From positions 1 to 46,208 of IMG/VR virus record IMGVR_UViG_3300031949_000069: a stretch of 46,208 bases of DNA. One strand, 5' to 3'. This document shows positions 9,447 to 31,851 of the stretch, in pieces; position 1 is the stretch's first letter; every line of letters begins with the position of its first letter. Both the position numbers and the translations under genes were made by a program. Source of the DNA: a virus (Duplodnaviria; Caudoviricetes). The notes beneath the pieces are model-generated. The model saw only the letters and a program-made list of their open reading frames with translations. It made no database searches and was not told the origin of the DNA.

Positions 9447-10661
9447 ATGAAATGTCACAAATGCCTTCAATCGCGTGAGAGCGATCGGTTACCGCCCGGA
9501 TGGAAGCGGCATCGCGATGCAGTCTGGTGCAAGGCCTGCTGGCGCGCAGCCTACATTCTGCGAGCAATCACGGTGCCTGTTGCGGGGCCGCTAGACGCGG
9601 ACTGGAGGGAACTGAGGGATTGTCTTCAGATGTGCTGGGCCGACTCCACCGCTTTGGCAAACTGGGTGGTGACGGAACTCGCCAAGCGTGATGTGATTCG
9701 CGCGGGCGAAGCGAGGATGCCGAAGTTCGAGTTCGTGTATCTCTACCCGGACGCCCGCAAGAGATTCCCACATCTCAATTGCCAATCTGTAGTATCGATT
9801 CTGCAAGCGGTGGATCGTCGCTACCGCCGGCGCCGGCTCGAGGCGATCTGGCGATCGAGCGAGAGTCTACCTCGATACCGATATCCGATGCCTTATCCGA
9901 CCCATAATCAGGGATGGAAAGTCATCAAGCGCGGCAACGACTATACCCTGCGTGTCCGCATGCAGGGAGAACCATGGGACCTGCGCCTCCGCGGAGGAAA
10001 TGGCTTCGGGCGACAGCAGCGGCAGATGGACCAGATTCTCGATGGTTCGGCAGTGCAGGGCGAACTTGCGATCTATCGCGTCCGCGCGCACGCCGGCGAT
10101 CATCGCAATGGCGCAGCCGGCAAAGCCTCGGGAGAGAAGGCCTTCTATCGCATTATGACGAAAATGGTGGCGTGGCTCCCGCGTGAGGAGCGGCGCAAGG
10201 GCAAAGGGATTGTGCTATCGCTGCGCACGGCGAGCGATCGATTCTGGATCGCATCGTCGCCGGCGATCGAGGATATCTGGCATCTCAATGCCGACCAGGC
10301 GCGGACATGGATTATCGGCTATGAGCGATTCCGACAACGATTGTCGGAGGATCGCCGGCCCGAGACGCCCCGGCACCGCGCAAATCGGGATCTGGAATTG
10401 CGCGGCAAAAAGCATCGCGACCGGATTCGATCGTTCGTGCAGATGAGCGTGGCCGGGCTGGCGGGCTACGCGCGCCGCCGCGGCGTTGGTACGATCATCT
10501 ATCACGATACTGATCGCAGCTATTTCCCTTCATTCCCCTGGGCCGCTGTGGTGACGGCCCTACAGACAAAACTGGACGAGTACGGTATTGCATTCGAGCA
10601 CGCGAGCGCCGAGGTGGCGAGCGAATCGCCAGACCCGCTCGCGAAGGAGGAACATGAGTGA
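9447..10661 (+). CDS. Compact TnpB/Cas12f-like CRISPR-associated protein, predicted nuclease-dead (404 aa)
   Basis: N-terminal CHKC/CKAC zinc finger; SLPRYR..PYP WED-like motif; basic bridge-helix region; IIYHD at the RuvC-II position; FPW...LQTKLDEYGI. RuvC-I reads VLSLRT instead of GxDxG, and the C-terminal zinc finger and RuvC-III are absent. Abuts a CRISPR array. Confidence 0.7.
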   Translation: MKCHKCLQSRESDRLPPGWKRHRDAVWCKACWRAAYILRAITVPVAGPLDADWRELRDCLQMCWADSTALANWVVTELAKRDVIRAGEARMPKFEFVYLYPDARKRFPHLNCQSVVSILQAVDRRYRRRRLEAIWRSSESLPRYRYPMPYPTHNQGWKVIKRGNDYTLRVRMQGEPWDLRLRGGNGFGRQQRQMDQILDGSAVQGELAIYRVRAHAGDHRNGAAGKASGEKAFYRIMTKMVAWLPREERRKGKGIVLSLRTASDRFWIASSPAIEDIWHLNADQARTWIIGYERFRQRLSEDRRPETPRHRANRDLELRGKKHRDRIRSFVQMSVAGLAGYARRRGVGTIIYHDTDRSYFPSFPWAAVVTALQTKLDEYGIAFEHASAEVASESPDPLAKEEHE

Positions 10662-10778
10662 AATCAGGGAATACGGCCTCCCTCAGGCCGACCGCGCACC
10701 AGCGACCATCCGCTTGCCGGAGGACCGCTCGCGCATAACGCCGCAAGAGCTGGGGATGTCGGGCTTAGGCCCGCGGCC

Positions 10779-10959
10779 CCCGGAGTGACCGATTGAGATG
10801 ACGGTCACTGGGGGTTTGGGACCTGGTCTCGGATCGCTCTGTGTCCGACGGCCCGGAGTGACCGATTGAGATGACGGTCACTGGGGGAAGAAAGTGTAGC
10901 GCGGGCGCTGACTGTCTGTCCTCCCCGGAGTGACCGAACAACAAATCGGTCACTGCGGG
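10779..10959 (+). CRISPR. CRISPR mini-array: 36-bp repeat CCCGGAGTGACCGATTGAGATGACGGTCACTGGGGG, 3 repeats, 2 spacers (37 and 36 nt)
   Basis: Identical repeats at 10779-10814 and 10852-10887; degenerate repeat at 10924-10959; AGTGACCG/CGGTCACT stem; spacers 10815-10851 and 10888-10923. Confidence 0.93.
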
Positions 10960-13159: not shown

Positions 13160-13420
13160 TTGGCAAAAAAGTGGCAAGGCCGAAAATGAGGAAAACCGGT
13201 GATTCCGCGTAAACCACTGATTCTATTGGTACGCCTGGCAGGGTTCGAACCTGCGACCTTCGGTTCCGGAGTGCGACGCGTAACTCGCACTAGATGCCCA
13301 CTAGTTGCGATTGCGTGTGGATTGCGCGTCGGTTTCTGGTTCCTCATTTTGGCCGCATCTAAAATAGTTCTAACAGAAGAAAAAAGTGGCAAAAAAGTGG
13401 CAACGCAATTTGCCGCTTTT
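13160..13420. repeat. Arm-type integrase/accessory site candidates flanking attP
   Basis: TGGCAAAAAAGTGGCAA at 13161-13177; tandem AAAAA(A)GTGGCA at 13380-13403; inverted TTGCCGCTTTT at 13410-13420; inverted pair 13178-13193/13340-13354. Confidence 0.7.
13227..13271 (-). mobile_element. attP core = 3' half of tRNA-Arg(CCG)
   Basis: Minus strand CTCCGGA ACCGA AGGTC GCAGG TTCGAAC CCTGC CAGGCGT ACCA: anticodon loop, T-arm, 3' acceptor strand and CCA; the 5' half is absent. Confidence 0.88.
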
Positions 13421-22251: not shown

Positions 22252-22638
22252 ATGGCTGCAACCGGATCAGGATACCTCGTACCGCGGCCGCCCCTTGTGG
22301 CGCCCGATGCAAGCGTCACAGCCAAGGCGGCGACCGGCAATCTGGCGATTGCCGACTACGCGAAAAACCTCACCAACACCGGCGCCGCCGGGACAATCGT
22401 CCTGACGCTGCTTGCGGCCGCATCGGCGGCGGGGATGGCATTTCGCATCCAGTGCACGGCCGCTCAGATCGTTCGGCTGCTTCCACAAACCGGGGAGAAG
22501 ATCTATCTCGGCGGAAGCGGCGTGGCATCGAAGTATCTAAACATCGCTGCCGTGATCGGCAACTACGTCGACGTGTACTGCGACGGGGAGAAGTATCTGG
22601 TCACGAGCTATAGCGGCGTAGTGACCAAGGAAGCGTAG
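22252..22638 (+). CDS. Putative head decoration/head-fibre protein, paralog 1
   Basis: Follows the capsid gene; TNTGAAGTIVLTL...G..F motif; paralog of the next gene. Confidence 0.7.
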   Translation: MAATGSGYLVPRPPLVAPDASVTAKAATGNLAIADYAKNLTNTGAAGTIVLTLLAAASAAGMAFRIQCTAAQIVRLLPQTGEKIYLGGSGVASKYLNIAAVIGNYVDVYCDGEKYLVTSYSGVVTKEA

Positions 22639-22695
22639 CGCCGTCGAGGAGCTGCGCCCAAGCTCGCAACCCTGTAACGGGAAGGAGATCAACAA

Positions 22696-23079
22696 ATGGC
22701 TGCAACCGGATCAGGATATCTGGTACCCGAGCCGCCTCTCGTGGCGCCGGATGCCGCTGTCGCCGCCAAGGACGCAACCGCGGACCTGGCGATCGGCGAT
22801 TACGGGAAAAACATCACCAACACCGGAGCCGGGGATACGATCGTTCTCACCCTGCTCGCAGCTGCCCTTGCGGCCGGTATGGCGTTTCGAGTGCAGCTGA
22901 CGGCCGCTTTCGTCGTCACCCTGACGCCGGCGAGCGGGGAGAAGATCTATCTCGGCGGAAGCGGAGTCGTCGACGAATCGCTCAGCATCGCCGGCGTGAT
23001 CGGCAATTACGTCGACATCTACTGCGATGGCGAGAAGCACATGGTCATCGATTACAGCGGCGTTCTCACCAAGGCATAA
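22696..23079 (+). CDS. Putative head decoration/head-fibre protein, paralog 2
   Basis: Same RBS and start (AAGGAGATCAACAAATGGCTGCAACCGGATCAGGATA); colinear homology to paralog 1. Confidence 0.7.
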   Translation: MAATGSGYLVPEPPLVAPDAAVAAKDATADLAIGDYGKNITNTGAGDTIVLTLLAAALAAGMAFRVQLTAAFVVTLTPASGEKIYLGGSGVVDESLSIAGVIGNYVDIYCDGEKHMVIDYSGVLTKA

Positions 23080-23088
23080 ACCACGCGC

Positions 23089-23406
23089 ATGACCATGGAC
23101 TTCGCCGTTCTCAATGAGGCCTGCCTGGATGTATTCGGGCAGGCCTGCACCTTCACCCGCGCGGACACGAGGGAGGAGCTTGTCGTTACCGGGATACTGG
23201 AGGAGGGGGTGGAGCTTGAGGGCGCGGCCCCCGGAGACGGCAGTATTTATGCGCAGCTCTGGCTGCCGGCCTCAGATATCAATCCCGCGCCGGAACCTGG
23301 CGACGAGATCTCTACGGCGAGCACCATCTACAAGATCCTTCGCATCGAGCAGGACGCCGGCGGGGGGATGCGGATCCTGTTGCGCAAGGATCGGGACGTG
23401 GCCTGA
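23089..23406 (+). CDS. Head-tail joining protein (gpFII-like)
   Basis: Position, size and PEPGDEI...YKILRIEQDAGG..ILLRK motif. Confidence 0.7.
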   Translation: MTMDFAVLNEACLDVFGQACTFTRADTREELVVTGILEEGVELEGAAPGDGSIYAQLWLPASDINPAPEPGDEISTASTIYKILRIEQDAGGGMRILLRKDRDVA

Positions 23407-23840
23407 TGGCTGCGGTCCGGATCTGGCAGAAAAAGAAACTCGTACTCGATCACCTGACCTTTCAACAGCGCGACATGGTCAGGATCGGATCGGCCGGACT
23501 GCTCAGCGTATTCCGGCGTCTGTCGGCGCACCAGGGACCCTCTGATGCGCCGGCGAAGCCGCTGACGAAGAGATACGCGATGTGGAAAACCCGGAAGCAC
23601 AAGGGTAGATTCCGGGATCTCAAATTCACCGGCGACATGCTGCGCAACCTGACCCTTCGGACCGTGACCGACAAAACGGCCCGCGCCGGGCTCACCAGCC
23701 GGAAGGAGCGCATCAAGGGTTGGGCCAATGCAGAGCGTGAGCCCTGGCTGCTTTTTTCGCCGGCCAATCGGCGCGCGGTGATGGACGTGGCGAGGCAGGT
23801 ATTCCAGGAGGCCAAGGCGCGCATGGTGAAGCATGGTTGA
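23406..23840 (+). CDS. Neck / virion morphogenesis protein
   Basis: Basic protein with KPLTKRYA..K...RDLKFTGDML. Confidence 0.65.
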   Translation: MAAVRIWQKKKLVLDHLTFQQRDMVRIGSAGLLSVFRRLSAHQGPSDAPAKPLTKRYAMWKTRKHKGRFRDLKFTGDMLRNLTLRTVTDKTARAGLTSRKERIKGWANAEREPWLLFSPANRRAVMDVARQVFQEAKARMVKHG

Positions 23841-24306
23841 TCCTTCCGAGATCGTCGACAACCTGGTCGACCTGCTGCGGGAGATACCCGACCTGGTCGA
23901 GCTCGTCGGTGGCGACCAGGAGCGGATCTTCGCCTACCACGATCGCTACCCGACGCACACGAGCCTCGATCAGGCGATCTATCAGCTGCCGTCGCCGCGG
24001 ATCATGGTCGCCTGGCGCAGTACTGGGCCCGGGAGCTTCGCCGGCGGGGAGGCCTGGAAGCATGAGATTGTGCTGATCCTGCGCGCCGGTCAGGAGGAAG
24101 GCGCCGATTCGCCGCAAGGGTATTATCAGCTCTTCAGGCAGATCACCCGCGGCATACCGACGGGTCTCGCGGTACCGCTTATCTATGCGACCGTGCACGC
24201 GTCATGTCAGCCGATGGACACGCCCTCGATCCGCCGGCTGCCGGATGCCGCGGGAGTGGATTACTGCGAAGTCACAATGATCTTCACCGAAATAGGAGAC
24301 GAATGA
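23833..24306 (+). CDS. Putative tail terminator
   Basis: Acidic ~157-aa protein immediately before the tail tube gene. Confidence 0.6.
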   Translation: MVDPSEIVDNLVDLLREIPDLVELVGGDQERIFAYHDRYPTHTSLDQAIYQLPSPRIMVAWRSTGPGSFAGGEAWKHEIVLILRAGQEEGADSPQGYYQLFRQITRGIPTGLAVPLIYATVHASCQPMDTPSIRRLPDAAGVDYCEVTMIFTEIGDE

Positions 24307-24307
24307 C

Positions 24308-25351
24308 ATGCCGGCCAACATCAGGGAAATGCTCATCGGGTTTGGCAAATGCAAACAAAGCGACCTCGCCACAGCCAACACGGTGGACGGGATCTGGAGG
24401 CTGGGGAAGCTGAACCGGACCTTTACGGGCCCAAATCTCAATACCGAGGATGACGCCCAGGACCTCGGCAAGGGGCACGAGTTCGCGACGGCGCAATATA
24501 AGACGTCCTGGGATGTGGCTGGCCAGCTCGAAAAGTTCCTGGGCGCAGAAATCGCGGCCTGGGCCATGGTATATGGCCTCGGCAAGAGTGCGAAGACCGG
24601 GGCGGACCCCAACTTCATCTACACTGTTACGCCGCTCGATCCGGTGACGGACGGGATCGAGCTGCCCTCCTTCAGCTACATCGAGCAGATCCGCCCGGGC
24701 GCGGGCGTGGTTCTGGATCGGATGGCCGTGGGATGTGTGGTGGAGGGCTGGGCGATCACAGTGGTGCCGGGTCCCGGCCGTGTCAATAGCAAGATCCTGA
24801 TCGATATCGTGGGATCCGGGAAGCACACCGAACCATCAGGGATCACGCTGCCTGCGGCCACGGCCGAAAAACTTCTTCCCGCCGCTTCCGTCACAGCAAT
24901 CATCAACGGCGTCGACTACGTGACGGCAAAAAATCTGGTCAACCTGCGGGCCAGCTGGAAAAACAATCACAGGCTCGACTCCGGATTCTATCCAGGATCC
25001 GGCTTCCAGGATACGGGCGATGGCGCCTCTGGAGCGATCCGCGGGCGGATGGAGGTCGGCGATCGCCTGTGCGGATTGCAATTCCAGGCCCGTTTTGAGA
25101 ACGGATCGACCGAACTCGAGGACCTCAAGGATCAGACCGAGGGCACGGCCGTCATTACCCTGACCTACGACACCAACGCTAACCTGAGCCTTACCTACCA
25201 GCGCCTGGCCTTTTCGGTCGTCGAGCTCGGCGAGGCGGACGGGATCGTGACGGTGCTTGTGACCTGCAAACCGATGATGCATTCAGCCAACGGCTTGCTT
25301 ACGGCCGTAGCCAAGTGCAACATCGATTTGATAGGCGAACTGGAACCGTAA
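24308..25351 (+). CDS. Major tail tube protein
   Basis: 347-aa beta-rich protein preceding the chaperone and tape measure genes. Confidence 0.75.
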   Translation: MPANIREMLIGFGKCKQSDLATANTVDGIWRLGKLNRTFTGPNLNTEDDAQDLGKGHEFATAQYKTSWDVAGQLEKFLGAEIAAWAMVYGLGKSAKTGADPNFIYTVTPLDPVTDGIELPSFSYIEQIRPGAGVVLDRMAVGCVVEGWAITVVPGPGRVNSKILIDIVGSGKHTEPSGITLPAATAEKLLPAASVTAIINGVDYVTAKNLVNLRASWKNNHRLDSGFYPGSGFQDTGDGASGAIRGRMEVGDRLCGLQFQARFENGSTELEDLKDQTEGTAVITLTYDTNANLSLTYQRLAFSVVELGEADGIVTVLVTCKPMMHSANGLLTAVAKCNIDLIGELEP

Positions 25352-25365
25352 AACGCGAGGTGGAA

Positions 25366-25989
25366 ATGGAACAAACAAACGGGCCGACTTTCGACGCTTC
25401 ACGGCCGATCGAAATCAAACTCAAATCGGCCGAGGGCGTGAAGCTGATCACGCTGCGGTTCCCGTCTGACGCCGAATGGATCGCGCGTCAGAAGGCGCGG
25501 AAATTGGTCGTCAAGAGCCTCGGCCGCGGCACGTCCGAAACGATCCCGCCCGATTCAGGGGAATTTGATCTTGACCTGGTGGTCCGGCTTCGGACCGACG
25601 AGGCGGGCCCGGAGATCGACAAATACGAGGCCTCGCGGATCCTGGATCAGCTCGGCGAGTGCGACGTCGACGGGGTAGTCGAGGATGGCGGCTCCTATCG
25701 CGTCACAACCCGCGTTCCGGGTGCTGTGACGGTGCACATCCTGCGCATGCCGACAGCCAAGGAAATCATGCAGCACCGCAGAGCATACTGCCGCACGCTC
25801 GACATGCCCTTCAACCAAAGCCAGACAACCGTGAATCTGGCCGCCGGCGGGGAGACCTACTCGAAACTTGAACCAAAGGCGGAGGGCTATGCGGGCGCGG
25901 TCCCGATCATCCACCAGGCTGCCGCGGTGAATGCGGCGATCGCAGCCCTCGAGTTCGGTATCGGGGTGGCCGAACCCGAAAATTTTTAG
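25366..25989 (+). CDS. Tail assembly chaperone (gpG-like)
   Basis: GAGGTGG RBS, ATG 25366; ends in GAA AAT TTT TAG with a slippery heptamer. Confidence 0.8.
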   Translation: MEQTNGPTFDASRPIEIKLKSAEGVKLITLRFPSDAEWIARQKARKLVVKSLGRGTSETIPPDSGEFDLDLVVRLRTDEAGPEIDKYEASRILDQLGECDVDGVVEDGGSYRVTTRVPGAVTVHILRMPTAKEIMQHRRAYCRTLDMPFNQSQTTVNLAAGGETYSKLEPKAEGYAGAVPIIHQAAAVNAAIAALEFGIGVAEPENF

Positions 25990-26303
25990 CCGAGGAATGG
26001 CCCGAGAGACCGTCGCTGCGCTATCTGGTTTACTGGGATCTCAGGCGCGACGAGCTGTGTGATCCAAAGCTGTGCGAGCACCCAGAGGGTGAGTGCCCGC
26101 GCGACCTCCTGGAAGCGGCTCATGGGTCAGATCTCGGCTGGCTGCTCAAGCGGGGGCTGAATCTGCGCGCCCTGATCAGGATCGGCCTGCAGATGCGGCT
26201 TGAGGACATCGCGGCCGACGAGATGCTGGCGATGCTGATTGTTGAAGAAGAAGAGCGACGGTACGACGAGGAAAAGCTTGCCGACACATCCAGGACGGAA
26301 TGA
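25980..26303 (+). CDS. -1 frameshift extension of the chaperone (gpGT-like)
   Basis: A-AAT-TTT at 25980-25986; the -1 frame is open (LAEEWPERPSLRYLVYW...ADTSRTE) to TGA 26301-26303, overlapping the tape measure start. Confidence 0.82.
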   Translation, partial: KFLAEEWPERPSLRYLVYWDLRRDELCDPKLCEHPEGECPRDLLEAAHGSDLGWLLKRGLNLRALIRIGLQMRLEDIAADEMLAMLIVEEEERRYDEEKLADTSRTE

Positions 26304-28684
26304 TGGCCGCCGATAACAAACTTGAGCTCATAATCGATATCGACAACTCCCCAGGCAAGAGATCCGTCGACGAAATGAATGCCAAGCTAAATGTGTTCGA
26401 ACGCGAGGCTGTTGCCGGGGCGAAAAGGTCCTCCGTGGGGATGAATCAATTTGAGCTCTCAGCAAAACAGGCTAGGGATCAAATGCACCAGGCCTCGCGC
26501 GCGGCGGAATTGCTTGCAAGCCGCATCGGGATATCCCTGCCCGAAGGCGCGCGGAAATGGCTTGTAAGCCTGAGGGGTATGGCGCCACTTCTGGCTTCCG
26601 CCTTCAGCGCATCCGCGGTCATCGCGATAGGCATGGCACTGTTCGATGCGGGTAAGCGGCTCTACGAGTGGATCGACGGCAGCAAGGAAGCGGCTGAAGC
26701 CGCCAAGAAGCAGCGGGAGAAGCAGGATGCCCTCAACAGATCAATGTCGGAGTACGTCGACGCGTTGAAGAAAATCCGCAATGAAAACGAAAAGATCGGG
26801 TTATCCGGATCGGCGCGCACCGGCAGAGACATCGTCCAGCTGGGGGGCGAGTTGCAGGGTTTGTATGAACTGCGCACAGCGGTGCAGCAACAGATTGCGA
26901 ATTTCCCGGCCGCGAACGCGACGTGGGGCCGATCCCAAGAGGAGGTGGCAAAACTGGCTCTGCTCAAAAAGAGTCTGTCGGATCTCGACCGGGCGATTAC
27001 GCCGCTCGAAATGCAGATGCAGGGACTTCAGATAACCCTCGGGTTCGATCGCGCCGAAGAGGGCGCAAAACGCATCGATGCAGAGATCAAGCGGGTCGAG
27101 GCCTTAACCGATGCGATCCGCAAAAAGGGCGAGCTCGAAACCTCGATCGAGAAAGACCTGGCTGCCTTGCGGGCGAGCGCGCGCGCGGCCTATGAAAAAT
27201 CCTCCGGCTTTGTCTCGAGCGTGGCGCCCCCCAGTTTCGCCGATCAGGTTGCCGGCGGCCTGCGCATGAATCAGGAATCCGCCATGGCGACTATCAAGCA
27301 GTACCAGGACCAGCGGACGGCCGTCGAGCAGCTCACCCAGGCCAATGAGGATCTCAGCCTGTCCATCCTGAAGCGATACGGGACAAGCCAGGAGGTCCTG
27401 CAGTTCGAGCTCGAGGCCCTGGAAAAACAGAAGGCTCTCTATTCCGATAACGCCGAAGCGATTGCCGTGATCGAGGAGCGCAAGAAGCTCCTGATCAAGC
27501 AGAACAACCTCGAGATCGCCGAGGACTCCCGCAACCAGTTCGAGCGGACCGCACAGAGCATCGAGGGCTTTTTCAACCGCGTGTTCATGTCCGCCAAATC
27601 CTTCGGGGATATCTGGAAGCAGCTCTGGACGCAAATCGTGAATTACCTGGTCTCGCAGTTTGCGCGTATGGCCGCAAGCTGGCTTGCGTCGCGCGGCCAG
27701 ATGGAAGGAGGATTGTCGGGTACGGGCGGCGGATCGGGGGGTTCCGGCTTCTGGGACATCATCAAATCCGTGCCCGACTACATCGGTAAAATCTGGGGCA
27801 GCCGCGGCGGGTCGGGCAACTCCGGCCAAAGCACCGGCTACGATCTGAATCAGCTGGAGGGCTGGGGCGGATCCGGAGGCTCCGGCCAAAGCACCGGGTA
27901 CGATCTGAATCAGCTGGAGGGCTGGGGCGGATCGGGATCGAGCACGGCATCGGCGTCTTCGAGCGCAGGCAGTGTCGGGGGGTATGCATCCAACGCAGGC
28001 GCGGCCTTCCAAGCCGGAGGCCCGGCGGGCCTGATCGCATACCTCGGCTATCTGCAGACCACGAAGGGATTTATCCCTGGCATCAAGGCTGACAGCAACA
28101 GATGGAGCTGGGGCGGCTATTTCAAGGCGGATGTCATTGGCCCCGGGGCCGGGGTTCCACTCTCGCATTGGCTCGGCAAGCTCTACAAGAGCGCGGAGGA
28201 AAAGATCCGCGATAAGGTCCGGCAGACTTACGGCATCGAGATGAACGAGCCGCAGTACATGAAGTCAATCGTGGATACCGCAAACCAGACATACGGAGGC
28301 GATCTCGACCGGGCCATCCAGTCCCAGGAGGTGCGCGAGCTCGTGCAGCTGTATGCGCTCTCTACCGGACAGACCACGAAGGGCATGCCGGCCAAGATGA
28401 CCGCTGGATCCTGGATGCAATCCGGAGGATCTCTATATTCGATGAGCCCGGGACAGCCATCGGCCTTGCCGGGCGCCGCCCTCAATCGCAGCGGCGCGGG
28501 CGGATCGACGGTGATCAACATCAGCATCCCGGGCGCCAAGCAGTTCTTTGAGAGCGAAACCGTGCGCGTGGTCGTAGACAACCCGCGCGCGGTGCAGACG
28601 TCTGCAACGAAGGCGACCAGATCAAACTACAACCGGCGCGAGCTCACAAGCCTGCAGCTCAGCCCCGGAACACTGACGAGCTGA
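26300..28684 (+). CDS. Tail tape measure protein
   Basis: 794 aa; helical Ala/Glu/Lys-rich N-terminal two thirds, Gly-rich C-terminus; canonical position. Confidence 0.9.
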   Translation: MMAADNKLELIIDIDNSPGKRSVDEMNAKLNVFEREAVAGAKRSSVGMNQFELSAKQARDQMHQASRAAELLASRIGISLPEGARKWLVSLRGMAPLLASAFSASAVIAIGMALFDAGKRLYEWIDGSKEAAEAAKKQREKQDALNRSMSEYVDALKKIRNENEKIGLSGSARTGRDIVQLGGELQGLYELRTAVQQQIANFPAANATWGRSQEEVAKLALLKKSLSDLDRAITPLEMQMQGLQITLGFDRAEEGAKRIDAEIKRVEALTDAIRKKGELETSIEKDLAALRASARAAYEKSSGFVSSVAPPSFADQVAGGLRMNQESAMATIKQYQDQRTAVEQLTQANEDLSLSILKRYGTSQEVLQFELEALEKQKALYSDNAEAIAVIEERKKLLIKQNNLEIAEDSRNQFERTAQSIEGFFNRVFMSAKSFGDIWKQLWTQIVNYLVSQFARMAASWLASRGQMEGGLSGTGGGSGGSGFWDIIKSVPDYIGKIWGSRGGSGNSGQSTGYDLNQLEGWGGSGGSGQSTGYDLNQLEGWGGSGSSTASASSSAGSVGGYASNAGAAFQAGGPAGLIAYLGYLQTTKGFIPGIKADSNRWSWGGYFKADVIGPGAGVPLSHWLGKLYKSAEEKIRDKVRQTYGIEMNEPQYMKSIVDTANQTYGGDLDRAIQSQEVRELVQLYALSTGQTTKGMPAKMTAGSWMQSGGSLYSMSPGQPSALPGAALNRSGAGGSTVINISIPGAKQFFESETVRVVVDNPRAVQTSATKATRSNYNRRELTSLQLSPGTLTS
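27821..27933 (+). repeat. 60-bp-period tandem duplication in the tape measure gene (SGQSTGYDLNQLEGWGGSG x2)
   Basis: 27821-27873 vs 27881-27933 differ at one synonymous base. Confidence 0.95.
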
Positions 28685-28688
28685 TGGA

Positions 28689-29084
28689 ATGCCCGGGAAC
28701 GTTGCGAATGCAGTGGCAACCGAAACCATGCCCTGGAGCCTGTGCCGGGCATTCGTTCATGCGCGCGAGTATCTGATTGCGCAGAATGAATACCGGAACG
28801 GCGAGTCGCAGCGCGACTTACTGGTAGACACGAGCCGGAAGCACTGGATCCTCGCGAAGCGTCTCGCACCGGCACAGCTCGAGGAACTGCGCGATTTTTA
28901 TGAGGCGCGGGGCGGCCCGCTTGAGGCCTTCTATTTTTATGATCCCTGGGAGACGGACCCAAAGTTCGACTCCACGCCATCGGGCGGCGCCGGGCGTTAT
29001 CTCGTGCGCTTCGCGGGGCCCTGGGAGCAATCCGCCGGCGCGGGGCGCGCGGACGCAAACCTTCTGCTGATCGAGCTGGCATAG
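28689..29084 (+). CDS. Distal tail protein (gpM/DUF2460-like)
   Basis: After the tape measure gene; LRDFYEARGGPLEAFYFYDP...VRF. Confidence 0.75.
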   Translation: MPGNVANAVATETMPWSLCRAFVHAREYLIAQNEYRNGESQRDLLVDTSRKHWILAKRLAPAQLEELRDFYEARGGPLEAFYFYDPWETDPKFDSTPSGGAGRYLVRFAGPWEQSAGAGRADANLLLIELA

Positions 29085-29094
29085 GCGGGGTTTC

Positions 29095-29502
29095 ATGGCA
29101 CTCAAGCTATCCACTGCCGCGCGCAATGCTCGCCTTGACGCGATTGAGACGGCGGTCGGCGAGAGCGCGATCCTGAAGATCCGCACCGGATCTCCTCCCG
29201 ATAGTATTTCGGATCCCGATTCGGGGGACGTCCTCGCAAGCCTGAACCTGCCCGCGAACTGGATGAGCGCTGCCGCGAACGGATCTAAGTCGAGATCCGG
29301 TATTTGGCAGGATGCGGCGGCGGATGCCACGGGGACGGCCGGGCATTTCCGGGTCTATGCAAATGACGGATCGACGCCACACCTGCAGGGCACCATTACC
29401 GTGAGTGAAGGCGGCGGTGACATGACCCTCGATTCGGTCAGCGTCGAGGCGGGTAATCCACTCACGATCACGGGGTTTGTTTTGACCGACGGCAACGCCT
29501 AG
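29095..29502 (+). CDS. Virion structural protein (small fibre-type subunit A)
   Basis: STAARNARLDAI...LKIRTG...ADATGTAGHFR...G.DM, a pattern common in phage tail modules. Confidence 0.7.
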   Translation: MALKLSTAARNARLDAIETAVGESAILKIRTGSPPDSISDPDSGDVLASLNLPANWMSAAANGSKSRSGIWQDAAADATGTAGHFRVYANDGSTPHLQGTITVSEGGGDMTLDSVSVEAGNPLTITGFVLTDGNA

Positions 29503-29530
29503 CGATTTGGCGTTCAGGCTGAATGTTTGG

Positions 29531-29552
29531 GGGCCGCGCGAGCGGCCCTTTT
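29531..29552 (+). terminator. Intrinsic terminator-like hairpin upstream of the inserted cassette
   Basis: GGGCCGC-GCGA-GCGGCCC-TTTT. Confidence 0.7.
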
Positions 29553-29567
29553 CATTGGGAGGCCACC

Positions 29568-30023
29568 ATGGCCGGATTCACAAACAAAGGAAAGTATCGG
29601 TTCTTCGATTGGATCTTCCGTGCGACGGCCTTGCCGACGAATTTCTATGCCGCGCTCGTCACTTCGGCCACGGCGCCTGTCGCGGACACCAACACCAAGT
29701 CCCAGCTGACCGAGATCGCCAACGGCCAGGGGTATACGACCGGCGGTATCTCGCTGACCAAGAACGCAACAGACTTTGATGTTCTGACCGAAGATGACGG
29801 CAACGACAAGGCGATTATCCAGATCAAGGACTTGGTCTGGACGGCGTCCGGGGGCAACCTGCCAGCATCGGGTAACGGCGCCAGGTATGGCGTGCTCACC
29901 GACGACAACGCGACGCAGGGATCGCGCGAGATATTCGCGTTTTGGGACCTGGTCTCGGATCGCTCTGTGTCCGACGGCCAGAGTTTGACTCTCCAAAACT
30001 GCGAGCTGGATCTGACCGAATAA
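29568..30023 (+). CDS. Virion structural protein (small fibre-type subunit B); contains the protospacer of CRISPR spacer 1
   Basis: GGGAGG RBS; FYAALVTS...EIANGQGYTTGG...DLVWTASGG...ARYGVL. Confidence 0.75.
   Translation: MAGFTNKGKYRFFDWIFRATALPTNFYAALVTSATAPVADTNTKSQLTEIANGQGYTTGGISLTKNATDFDVLTEDDGNDKAIIQIKDLVWTASGGNLPASGNGARYGVLTDDNATQGSREIFAFWDLVSDRSVSDGQSLTLQNCELDLTE
29941..29977 (+). other. Protospacer matching CRISPR spacer 1 (37/37 nt)
   Basis: TTTGGGACCTGGTCTCGGATCGCTCTGTGTCCGACGG occurs at both 10815 and 29941; 5' flank ...TTCGCGT, 3' flank CCAGAG. Confidence 0.98.
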
Positions 30024-30071
30024 CCGCCGGCGCTTCGCGGCGGTGACAATAATAGCCAGCAAGGAGCAGCG

Positions 30072-30485
30072 ATGATCGACATCAAGAAATTGGCAAAAGA
30101 AACAACACCGAGTGACAAAGCGAAGGCTCTGGTCGGCGCGGAAGTCGGCTTCGAAATCGCCGGCGCCGAGCTCTACCCGGCGACGATCGACGAGATCCAG
30201 GCCTGCCTGGGCGTGGGCAAAGGACCGGCGAAATTCGCGGACACCGAGGGGACACCGAACGCGCTCCATCAGTACTGGACCGAGGCGCAGCGGCTTGGCA
30301 CCGGCGCTTTCGAGCTGGCGCGCATGAGGTATGACCAGTGCGGGGGCCTGAGCCCGGAGCAGAAGAAAGCCCGCAACGCAGCCCTCGAGTGCGCCCGGAA
30401 GTGGTTCACGGAGGTGTTGCACCAGAGCGTCGGGGGGCAGCCGATGGGCCTCCATATTACGGGCAAAGAATTCAAACTCTGCTGA
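30072..30485 (+). CDS. Hypothetical protein
   Basis: AAGGAG RBS; 137 aa. Confidence 0.7.
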   Translation: MIDIKKLAKETTPSDKAKALVGAEVGFEIAGAELYPATIDEIQACLGVGKGPAKFADTEGTPNALHQYWTEAQRLGTGAFELARMRYDQCGGLSPEQKKARNAALECARKWFTEVLHQSVGGQPMGLHITGKEFKLC

Positions 30486-30492
30486 GGCTGCC

Positions 30493-31851
30493 ATGAAAAG
30501 ATATGTCCTGCTGTGCCTGATGATCCTCTGTTCTCTCGTCGCATTCGGCACGCCGCGCACCGCGCTCTACGTGTCGGCGACCGGAAGCGACACAACCGGA
30601 GATGGGTCGGCCTGCGCACCGTGGGCCACCATTCAGCGCGCCGCGGCCGCCGTCAAAGCCGGTGAGGTGGTATTCGTCGGGCCGGGCCAGTACTCCGGCG
30701 CGATCACCACGAGCGCAAGCGGGACAGCCTGCAACCCGATCGTGTTCCAAGCCGCGCCCGGGGTCACGATCGCGGGCCGTTGGCGCCTGGTCGGCGAGTA
30801 CGTCACCATCACCGGCTTTGCCATGCAGGGGCCGCTTGCGGGCTCTTTGAATTTCTTTGATCTTTCCGGTGCCAAGCATTGCACGGTCAGCTACAACACC
30901 GTCCAGGGCGGGGACTACAACGACCGAGGCGTCTACCTGGGTGGGTCTGCAAGTTCCTACAATGCCATCGAGCACAACGTGATCCGGAACATTGATTACG
31001 TTCCTATCTGGATCGGCGGCGTCGGCAACACCATCGAACGAAACACCGTGGACAACGTGTCCACGGATGCGATTCTGGTCTGGGGCCATGGTCACGTGAT
31101 CCGGGGCAACGACGTGGGGCGTGTGACATACGCCCCGAATCACGCCGATTACATGCAGACCTTCTCGAATGCCGGCGACACCAACGAGTCCTATGACATC
31201 CTGGTCGAGAGAAATTTCTTTCATGACTCGCCCTGGACGACCGAACCGGCGAATGTGCAGATCGGGCAGCTTTCACCGCAGGGAAACCCGAACATCAGGG
31301 ATTGGATGTTTCGAAATAACATCTTCGCCCGGATCGACGGGCCCCTGAACATCAACATTCCCGGCACCAAGGTTTTGAACAACCTTTTCTATCGCGTGTC
31401 GACGCGTATCGGCGGGAATGCGGTCAATTTTGGGGACAGCGTGACAAACGGGCCGGCGCACAATCCGACAGTGAAAAATAACCTCTTCATCGGATGTGGA
31501 CGGCTCATGGACAAGTACGGCTCCTACTCGATGGAGGCTGGCGTTCAGGGCGATGATTGCAGCCACAACCTGGTTGCAGACGGCCCGCCCGGCTACGGCC
31601 CGAAGAAGCTTACCCTGTCCCGCGACCTGGCCGGCGCGTCCCTGAATGGCATCAATCCGCTGTTTGTCGACGAGCTCGGCGGGGACTTCCGACTGTTGCC
31701 GGAATCGCCCGTAGTCTCGGCCGGCGTCAACCTCAGCCTGCTGTTCAAAGACGATTTCGATGGATCGCCCCGCCCCGCGACGGGCCCGTGGTCCATTGGG
31801 CCATTCGCTGCGCCGCGTGTGCTTGCCGGAATGATCGCGGCCAGGAGGTAG
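30493..31851 (+). CDS. Signal-peptide-bearing right-handed beta-helix (pectin lyase-like) protein
   Basis: MKRYVLLCLMILCSLVAFG; YVSATGSD..GDGS...PWATIQRAA; Asn-ladder repeats; NPLFVD..GDFRL...DDFDGSPRP..WSIGPF. Confidence 0.85.
   Translation: MKRYVLLCLMILCSLVAFGTPRTALYVSATGSDTTGDGSACAPWATIQRAAAAVKAGEVVFVGPGQYSGAITTSASGTACNPIVFQAAPGVTIAGRWRLVGEYVTITGFAMQGPLAGSLNFFDLSGAKHCTVSYNTVQGGDYNDRGVYLGGSASSYNAIEHNVIRNIDYVPIWIGGVGNTIERNTVDNVSTDAILVWGHGHVIRGNDVGRVTYAPNHADYMQTFSNAGDTNESYDILVERNFFHDSPWTTEPANVQIGQLSPQGNPNIRDWMFRNNIFARIDGPLNINIPGTKVLNNLFYRVSTRIGGNAVNFGDSVTNGPAHNPTVKNNLFIGCGRLMDKYGSYSMEAGVQGDDCSHNLVADGPPGYGPKKLTLSRDLAGASLNGINPLFVDELGGDFRLLPESPVVSAGVNLSLLFKDDFDGSPRPATGPWSIGPFAAPRVLAGMIAARR

Follow-up and report, generated by a model that had tools for sequence, protein, structure and literature searches.

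A temperate soil phage carries a short repeat-spacer array in which one spacer is identical to part of the phage's own genome. Is this guide directed at its carrier, or at close relatives that differ beside the matching site? The window analyzed here is a complete stretch of 46,208 nt (IMG/VR record IMGVR_UViG_3300031949_000069). A preliminary description of this DNA offered two models: (a) RNA-guided self-regulation of late tail and lysis genes by a non-cutting effector, and (b) a weapon against sibling phages with a synonymous GCT or GCC codon at the flank. On balance, we think it probable from the sequences compared that spacer 1 would silence tail-gene transcription in near-identical phages with GCT (flank CTT) and spare the carrier's own CGT site, through a non-cutting effector that requires a 5′-YTN flank.

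Carrier phage and effector

The window represents a temperate tailed phage in near-complete form. Its contig has 254-nt terminal repeats (253/254 identical) and encodes a repressor/Cro-like pair, xis/int, lambda-type terminase and portal, tail proteins, and an endolysin. A likely attP core formed by a tRNA 3′ half lies downstream of the integrase gene (13227..13271, minus strand); we take the tRNA, read by eye, to be Arg-CCG. The same sequence is a tRNA 3′ end in genomes G235 and G305 (45/45; 2 of the 30 Acidobacteriota tRNA loci compared), and this identity points to attP and suggests an Acidobacteriota host. A capsid gene is followed by two tandem paralogous genes (22252–23079) of 127–128 aa with 76% DNA identity.

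The effector gene (9450..10661, plus strand, alternative start 9423) sits in a rightward gene run ahead of xis/int and encodes a Cas12f-like protein of 403 aa, predicted to be nuclease-dead. No match was found in Pfam, PHROG, or NCBIfam, and PADLOC returned weak matches to Cas12f. The protein has 136 homologs, 119 of which were aligned with it (120 rows), and the family profile matches Cas12f chains. An AF2 model (pLDDT 93.6) was searched with Foldseek, and the best matches were AsCas12f (8j12, E 1.6e-18) and dCas12f (9n9c, E 1e-17). Profile alignment to OsCas12f (9nzq) places R259 at the RuvC-I Asp (R in 83 of 120 rows) and H352 at the RuvC-II Glu, in a column that is D in 94 of 120 rows. RuvC-III and the TNB are absent; chains end a median of 20 residues past the last RuvC strand, and the CxxC of the TNB cysteines occurs in 0 of 120 family tails. 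An N-terminal CxxC...CxxC motif is conserved across the family. The effector is thus predicted to be unable to cut DNA, and the non-cutting effector assumed in the preliminary description stands as a prediction, with the Cas12f fold kept and the RuvC-I Asp, RuvC-II Glu, and RuvC-III lost.

Array and scaffold RNA

The array contains three 36-nt repeats on the plus strand, beginning at 10779, 10852, and 10924. Repeat 1 (10779..10814) forms a hairpin with a z of −3.1 and is identical to repeat 2 (10852..10887, unitig depth 57.5). Repeat 3 (10924..10959) is 78% alike, with a diverged loop and a retained stem. Spacer 1 (10815..10851, plus strand) is the self-matching guide, and spacer 2 (10888..10923, plus strand) has no self-match. 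Because repeats 1 and 2 are identical, spacer 1 looks recent. Immediately upstream is a conserved tracr/omega-like scaffold RNA (10672..10778, plus strand, boundaries approximate), which is contiguous with repeat 1, so that spacer 1 occupies the guide position of a natural single-guide RNA. Compensatory changes were seen in 20 of 24 predicted scaffold pairs in an alignment of 31 sequences, hand-picked for regular length from 44 extracted units. No Rfam family matched the scaffold.

Plus-strand orientation of the array, on which the earlier models depended, is supported by the upstream scaffold, by the diverged last repeat, and by the decayed short repeats of relatives, which retain the repeat 3′ end. 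The reverse orientation was ruled out by the scaffold position and these 3′-retained mini-repeats. Neither cas1 nor cas2 was found among the 50 window ORFs in Pfam and PHROG scans, so spacer acquisition must be in trans or by recombination.

Other array features were observed across the family. The motif CGCTCGC (10637–10643), also present in the scaffold, recurs at the effector ORF 3′ end in 21 of 78 loci, perhaps as part of a promoter or as a duplicated piece of the RNA. Decayed arrays lie downstream of the effector at six loci (L003, L006, L008, L013, L014, and L090). They are runs of 7–12 nt 3′-end mini-repeats with spacers of about 9–70 nt, reaching 58 units in G014, and look as if one scaffold served many minimal guides. 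Compared with shuffles, self-matches of their short spacers are not clearly in excess (6 contigs). Scaffold-plus-array units that are additional or stand alone are found away from the effector in G006, G008, G428 (L258), L020, and L089. G428 is complete at 38 kb and has such a unit with no effector match.

Identity of spacer 1 to a phage gene

Spacer 1 matches 29941..29977 (plus strand) at 37/37 positions, on the coding strand near the 3′ end of gene 29568..30023 (plus strand). The chance expectation of such a self-match is ~1.5e-17. The two further bases that bring the identity to 39 nt come from the next repeat, which also begins CC. The site is flanked by ATTCGCGT on the 5′ side and CCAGAG on the 3′ side. 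The reading frame at the protospacer edge is GCG T|TT TGG. The −2 G of the 5′ flank GCGT (29937..29940, plus strand), which is predicted not to be a PAM, is therefore the wobble base of an Ala codon, as had been read earlier.

The target gene encodes 151 aa and is likely tail-associated. It belongs to phrog_644, a family with no function assigned in PHROG, and has a weak ESM Atlas lead to gp80 fibre protein, from 23% of that cluster. Its earlier label as a structural gene is retained from gene context, with a virion structural gene on one side and tail genes on the other. No promoter-like sites were found in 28500–31000. GC-rich hairpins flank the gene (29530–29553 and 30024–30043), and the upstream one is followed by TTTT; both were seen by eye and are absent from the terminator scan.

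Both loci were checked on Logan contigs of run X1, ~65% of which was read; the run is probably the source sample and so offers no independent evidence. Depth is 58.3 on the shared 39-nt unitig, compared with 25.9–32.2 for single-copy unitigs. This doubling is the pattern of two copies per genome, and with the 37/37 identity it confirms the perfect self-match reported in the preliminary description. One contig of the run leads from the shared stretch into tail-gene sequence. The unitig at the repeat-spacer junction has 30 letters on either side, one below the bridging rule. Positions 22275–29940, including the GCGT flank, have no long-piece cover in the part of the run that was read, so this flank rests on the window's assembly. 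No other alleles were seen at covered positions.

Self-matches were then counted across the effector family. Loci were gathered by protein (106), with more by scaffold motif, and 23 whole contigs were rebuilt besides the window. Seven of these 24 full contigs were excluded from the count for want of a regular array; the other 17 (59 full spacers) and G811, which has no self-match, make up the 18 contigs considered. Self-matches occur in 2 of the 18, the window phage and G015/L096, a rate that is a lower bound because many family contigs are fragments. With 16 of 18 lacking one, the self-match is not a conserved circuit. The match in G015/L096 is also to spacer 1, at 37/37 and in coding sense. 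Its target is a small gene of unassigned family encoding a hydrophobic C-terminus, with flank TTACGTGC and frame GTG C|TG. At both self sites −3 is Y and −2 is G, at a four-fold wobble position, and the two flanks have CGYGY in common. In the L096 region (G015:C7), small genes encoding hydrophobic C-termini are numerous and a transglutaminase-like gene is present; this region is unlike a tailed phage, and L096 is binned in a Saccharibacteria MAG. A 29-nt self-repeat in G001 was dismissed because it lies outside the array.

Probable flank preference of the effector family

AsCas12f reads YTN/TTR. Among family spacers, four seed-anchored non-self matches have a free flank, and all four have YT at −3/−2 (TTC, TTC, CTA, and CTG), against a background YT frequency of 0.09–0.12. 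Spacer 1 of L102 matches a Calx-beta gene in its own Gemmataceae MAG (31/38, first 19 exact, TTC), spacer 2 of L078 matches G892 (31/36, first 17 exact, TTC), and spacer 1 of L064 matches the window attP (34/35, CTA). The fourth, which is tentative, is between window spacer 2 and G109, where the site is at a ketoacyl-synthase gene end (first 20 nt exact, CTG). All four are imperfect matches of different family members, chosen after inspection, and none is the true target; three are chromosomal or att-type rather than in phage structural genes. The L064 match falls on a conserved tRNA end, and the one in G109 stands little above background: a 22-nt chance match was found in 1 of 381 Planctomycetota genomes, although the expectation of an exact 20-nt seed match is ~0.005. 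In 3 of 101 Gemmataceae genomes, 19-nt seed matches to spacer 1 of L078 are flanked by GAC and do not fit YTN; they were discounted because the BLAST alignment ran into the repeat's own terminal CGAC. An 18/19 seed match in G681 (flank GGG) was set aside as background from extension into the repeat.

The non-self sites have T at −2 and the self sites a wobble G, a difference that suggests that the family PAM is probably 5′-YTN and that the native GCGT flank is probably not bound. Cas12f PAMs are described as 5′ and T- or C-rich in the available text of PMC7229846. The Fta dCas12f TAM is given as a single 5′-G in the accessible part of PMC13472631, so dead homologs can drift.

L064 spacer 1 (L064:11321–11355) matches the tRNA 3′-end att core found in the window attP, and RNA-guided competition for the integration site is possible. 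The att site of L064 itself has flank TTG but 2 seed mismatches to this spacer, which is another route to self-avoidance. Window spacer 2 looks like the end of a gene (KKV-stop), and 10888–10907 matches L179:1502–1521, a fabF-like gene in an Acidobacteriota genome with 5′ flank TTCTG; this spacer may be host-directed. Gemmataceae chromosomal genes are matched by L102 spacer 1 (L335, a Calx-beta surface protein) and by L078 spacer 2 (L481, probably a small minus-strand ORF without a Pfam match).

Search for targeted relatives

Fifteen homologs of the target gene were found in IMG/VR. The best matches spacer 1 at 29/37, which puts the origin of the spacer in this phage or in near-clonal kin. An Ala codon precedes the protospacer-equivalent site in 5 of 14 alignable homologs. 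The database search and the tabulation of the −2 base that had been proposed earlier gave 0 protospacers in an IMG/VR pattern scan and one CTT flank among the 14 homologs, in L172, which matches at 24/37 with mismatches at positions 1–2. No sibling with both CTT and a seed match was found among the 15 homologs or in the pattern scan. Exact-pattern scans of IMG/VR returned 0 for spacer 1 (wobble-degenerate), spacer 2, and G015 spacer 1, and nearest-kin records may be hidden.

The window and L002 arrays had no match in GenBank phages and 3 chance matches in a plasmid search. Among 68 terminase-relative loci (0.77 Mb) there was neither a protospacer nor an effector. Full matches to spacer 2 were absent from 401 Acidobacteriota, 381 Planctomycetota, 7 G109-order, and 51 G305-order genomes. 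No credible target was found for the arrays of L100, L105, L097, L098, L104, and L106 in their own MAGs, for L002 in 371 genomes, or for L017 in 51. The search with the L064 array was swamped by tRNA matches. Kin targeting is thus suggested by flank geometry, and these searches found no victim.

Interpretation

In the kin-directed reading, the scaffold, repeat, and spacer 1 would be expressed and loaded onto the effector as a single guide. The effector would bind DNA at YTN-flanked targets and block transcription as a roadblock. The carrier's GCG codon would remove the PAM by one synonymous base, and kin with GCT (CTT) would be bound. With the array on the plus strand, the PAM end faces the oncoming polymerase. 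TldR is described as blocking elongation when its TAM end faces the promoter (available text of 10.1101/2023.11.30.569447), and this analogy supports the blocking orientation claimed for the guide in the preliminary description. The spacer may have been acquired in trans by host Cas1-Cas2, either from a near-clonal relative with GCT, or from the phage's own GCT ancestor, which would then have escaped through a T-to-G change; either course leads to the same present state. Similar behavior has been described: viral mini-arrays are directed at close kin, with self spared through point mutations (PMC6858448, in part), and prophage TldR spares fliC-P through TAM and seed mutations (10.1101/2023.11.30.569447, in part). 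The sibling-weapon model is favored in part. T at −2 in 4/4 non-self matches and wobble G at both self sites agree with it, and the GCT/CTT form fits; no match backs the GCC/CCT form. Its variant in which the module was later acquired from a competitor has no compositional support (GC3 0.76, neighbors 0.71–0.80).

A permissive flank would instead let the complex bind its own gene, as a brake on late tail and lysis expression or as repressor-independent exclusion of an identical superinfecting phage in lysogeny. Both known self-matches involve spacer 1, the scaffold-fused guide, in coding sense and in likely virion genes, and their flanks have CGYGY in common. The orientation is the one in which TldR is described as blocking elongation (10.1101/2023.11.30.569447, in part), and the effector, predicted not to cut, lies in the rightward run before xis/int. 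However, 16 of the 18 regular-array contigs have no self-match, every non-self flank has T at −2, the site lies toward a gene's 3′ end in a region with no promoter-like site, and spacer 1 looks recent from its identical repeats. We consider self-binding rather unlikely, and the earlier self-regulation model loses ground, judged against a PAM that is itself deduced from matches. Still less likely is a bolder version, in which the dead Cas12f and its scaffold-fused guide would form a natural CRISPRi timer of the phage's own tail and lysis transcription that arose at least twice (window and G015) with a YGY-type PAM.

If the phage's own abundant DNA had been captured by accident at the leader end, without regard to a PAM, the spacer would lack a function and be retained because, with neither PAM nor nuclease, it does no harm. 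The spacer is leader-proximal and identity is perfect in both self-matches, no sibling target was found, and no other alleles appear in the covered part of run X1. Against this, random capture would seldom give such a site: of the non-YT sense sites in 13 window genes, 13.5% lie a single synonymous change away from YT, and both self sites belong to this class. The window site was picked out in the preliminary description, so only G015 is an independent test of the wobble pattern. We consider such capture rather unlikely as well. A chimeric assembly, with the array and tail gene from two phages, would fit the uncovered 22275–29940, but depth is even on either side (30–32 and 27.5) and doubled on the shared 39-mer, the contig has terminal repeats and a complete gene set, and G015/L096 shows the same arrangement. 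A chimera is therefore very improbable.

If the kin-directed reading is true, a temperate phage uses one synonymous base to tell itself apart from near-clonal kin, which it silences with its own roughly 400-aa non-cutting effector, a CRISPRi-type phage-versus-phage exclusion. It would also give the first PAM estimate for a family of >130 compact natural repressors that come with a built-in single guide. Were the flank permissive instead, the system would be an RNA-guided self-control of a phage lytic program, for which no paper was found in open-access literature text.

Comparison with known systems

Kin-directed phage spacers with self-avoidance are already known, and the dead-Cas12f version looks uncharacterized. 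The phage dead-Cas12f family is apparently uncharacterized in the available text of PMC13472631 and PMC10691335, the supplements of which may list it (for Altae-Tran et al., PMC10691335, among the inactivated V-U* subtypes, e.g., V-U24, V-U43, and V-U44). Type V-F Cas12f1 nucleases (AsCas12f 8j12, SpCas12f 9i8y, and OsCas12f 9nzq) are similar in fold (TM about 0.64) and in 36-nt repeats, and may also be alike in a 5′ pyrimidine-rich PAM, with YTN here in 4/4 usable imperfect matches and 3 biased GAC matches. The effector has the Cas12f fold at a size within the 400–600 aa range of these nucleases, but has lost the catalytic D and E of the RuvC D-E-D triad, RuvC-III, and the TNB, and is 10–16% identical to them.

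The mini-arrays of viruses SPV1 and SPV2 likewise hold one or two anti-kin spacers and spare self by point changes, as described in the available parts of PMC6858448 and PMC11656645. Those arrays borrow a host effector, whereas the phage itself encodes a non-cutting effector and a scaffold, and phage self differs only at the probable PAM, not in the protospacer. Prophage TldR (10.1101/2023.11.30.569447) and Cas12m (PMC11656645) are, in the text available, dead TnpB/Cas12 proteins with RNA-guided repression and TAM-based self-avoidance. TldR has one omega-RNA directed at a host gene, and Cas12m ranks far lower in fold comparison with the phage effector (E 5e-7 versus 2e-18). Cas12r of Thermus Lalka phages (10.64898/2026.04.20.719267, in part) is also phage-borne type V with a small array against competing mobile elements, but its interference is lost in a catalytic mutant and its PAM is ARG.

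In combining a truncated, predicted-dead Cas12f with a covarying scaffold ahead of its array, the phage system resembles the array-associated dCas12f cluster that Hoffmann et al. describe together with dCas12f-sigmaE (PMC13472631; PDB 9n9c). As far as the available text describes them, these have the Cas12f fold, C-terminal truncation through RuvC, a scaffold upstream of the array or repeat-fused, and predicted DNA binding without cutting. No adjacent rpoE/sigmaE gene was found among the 50 window ORFs (Pfam/PHROG), and activation 46 bp downstream in the dCas12f-sigmaE manner was ruled out for want of this partner. Compared with the systems described there, the effector is phage-borne (Acidobacteriota/Planctomycetota contexts), has the N-terminal CxxC...CxxC motif, and is 14% identical to 9n9c; its array has full 36–37 nt spacers, its PAM is probably YTN rather than 5′-G, and its matched site is in a virion gene rather than a promoter.
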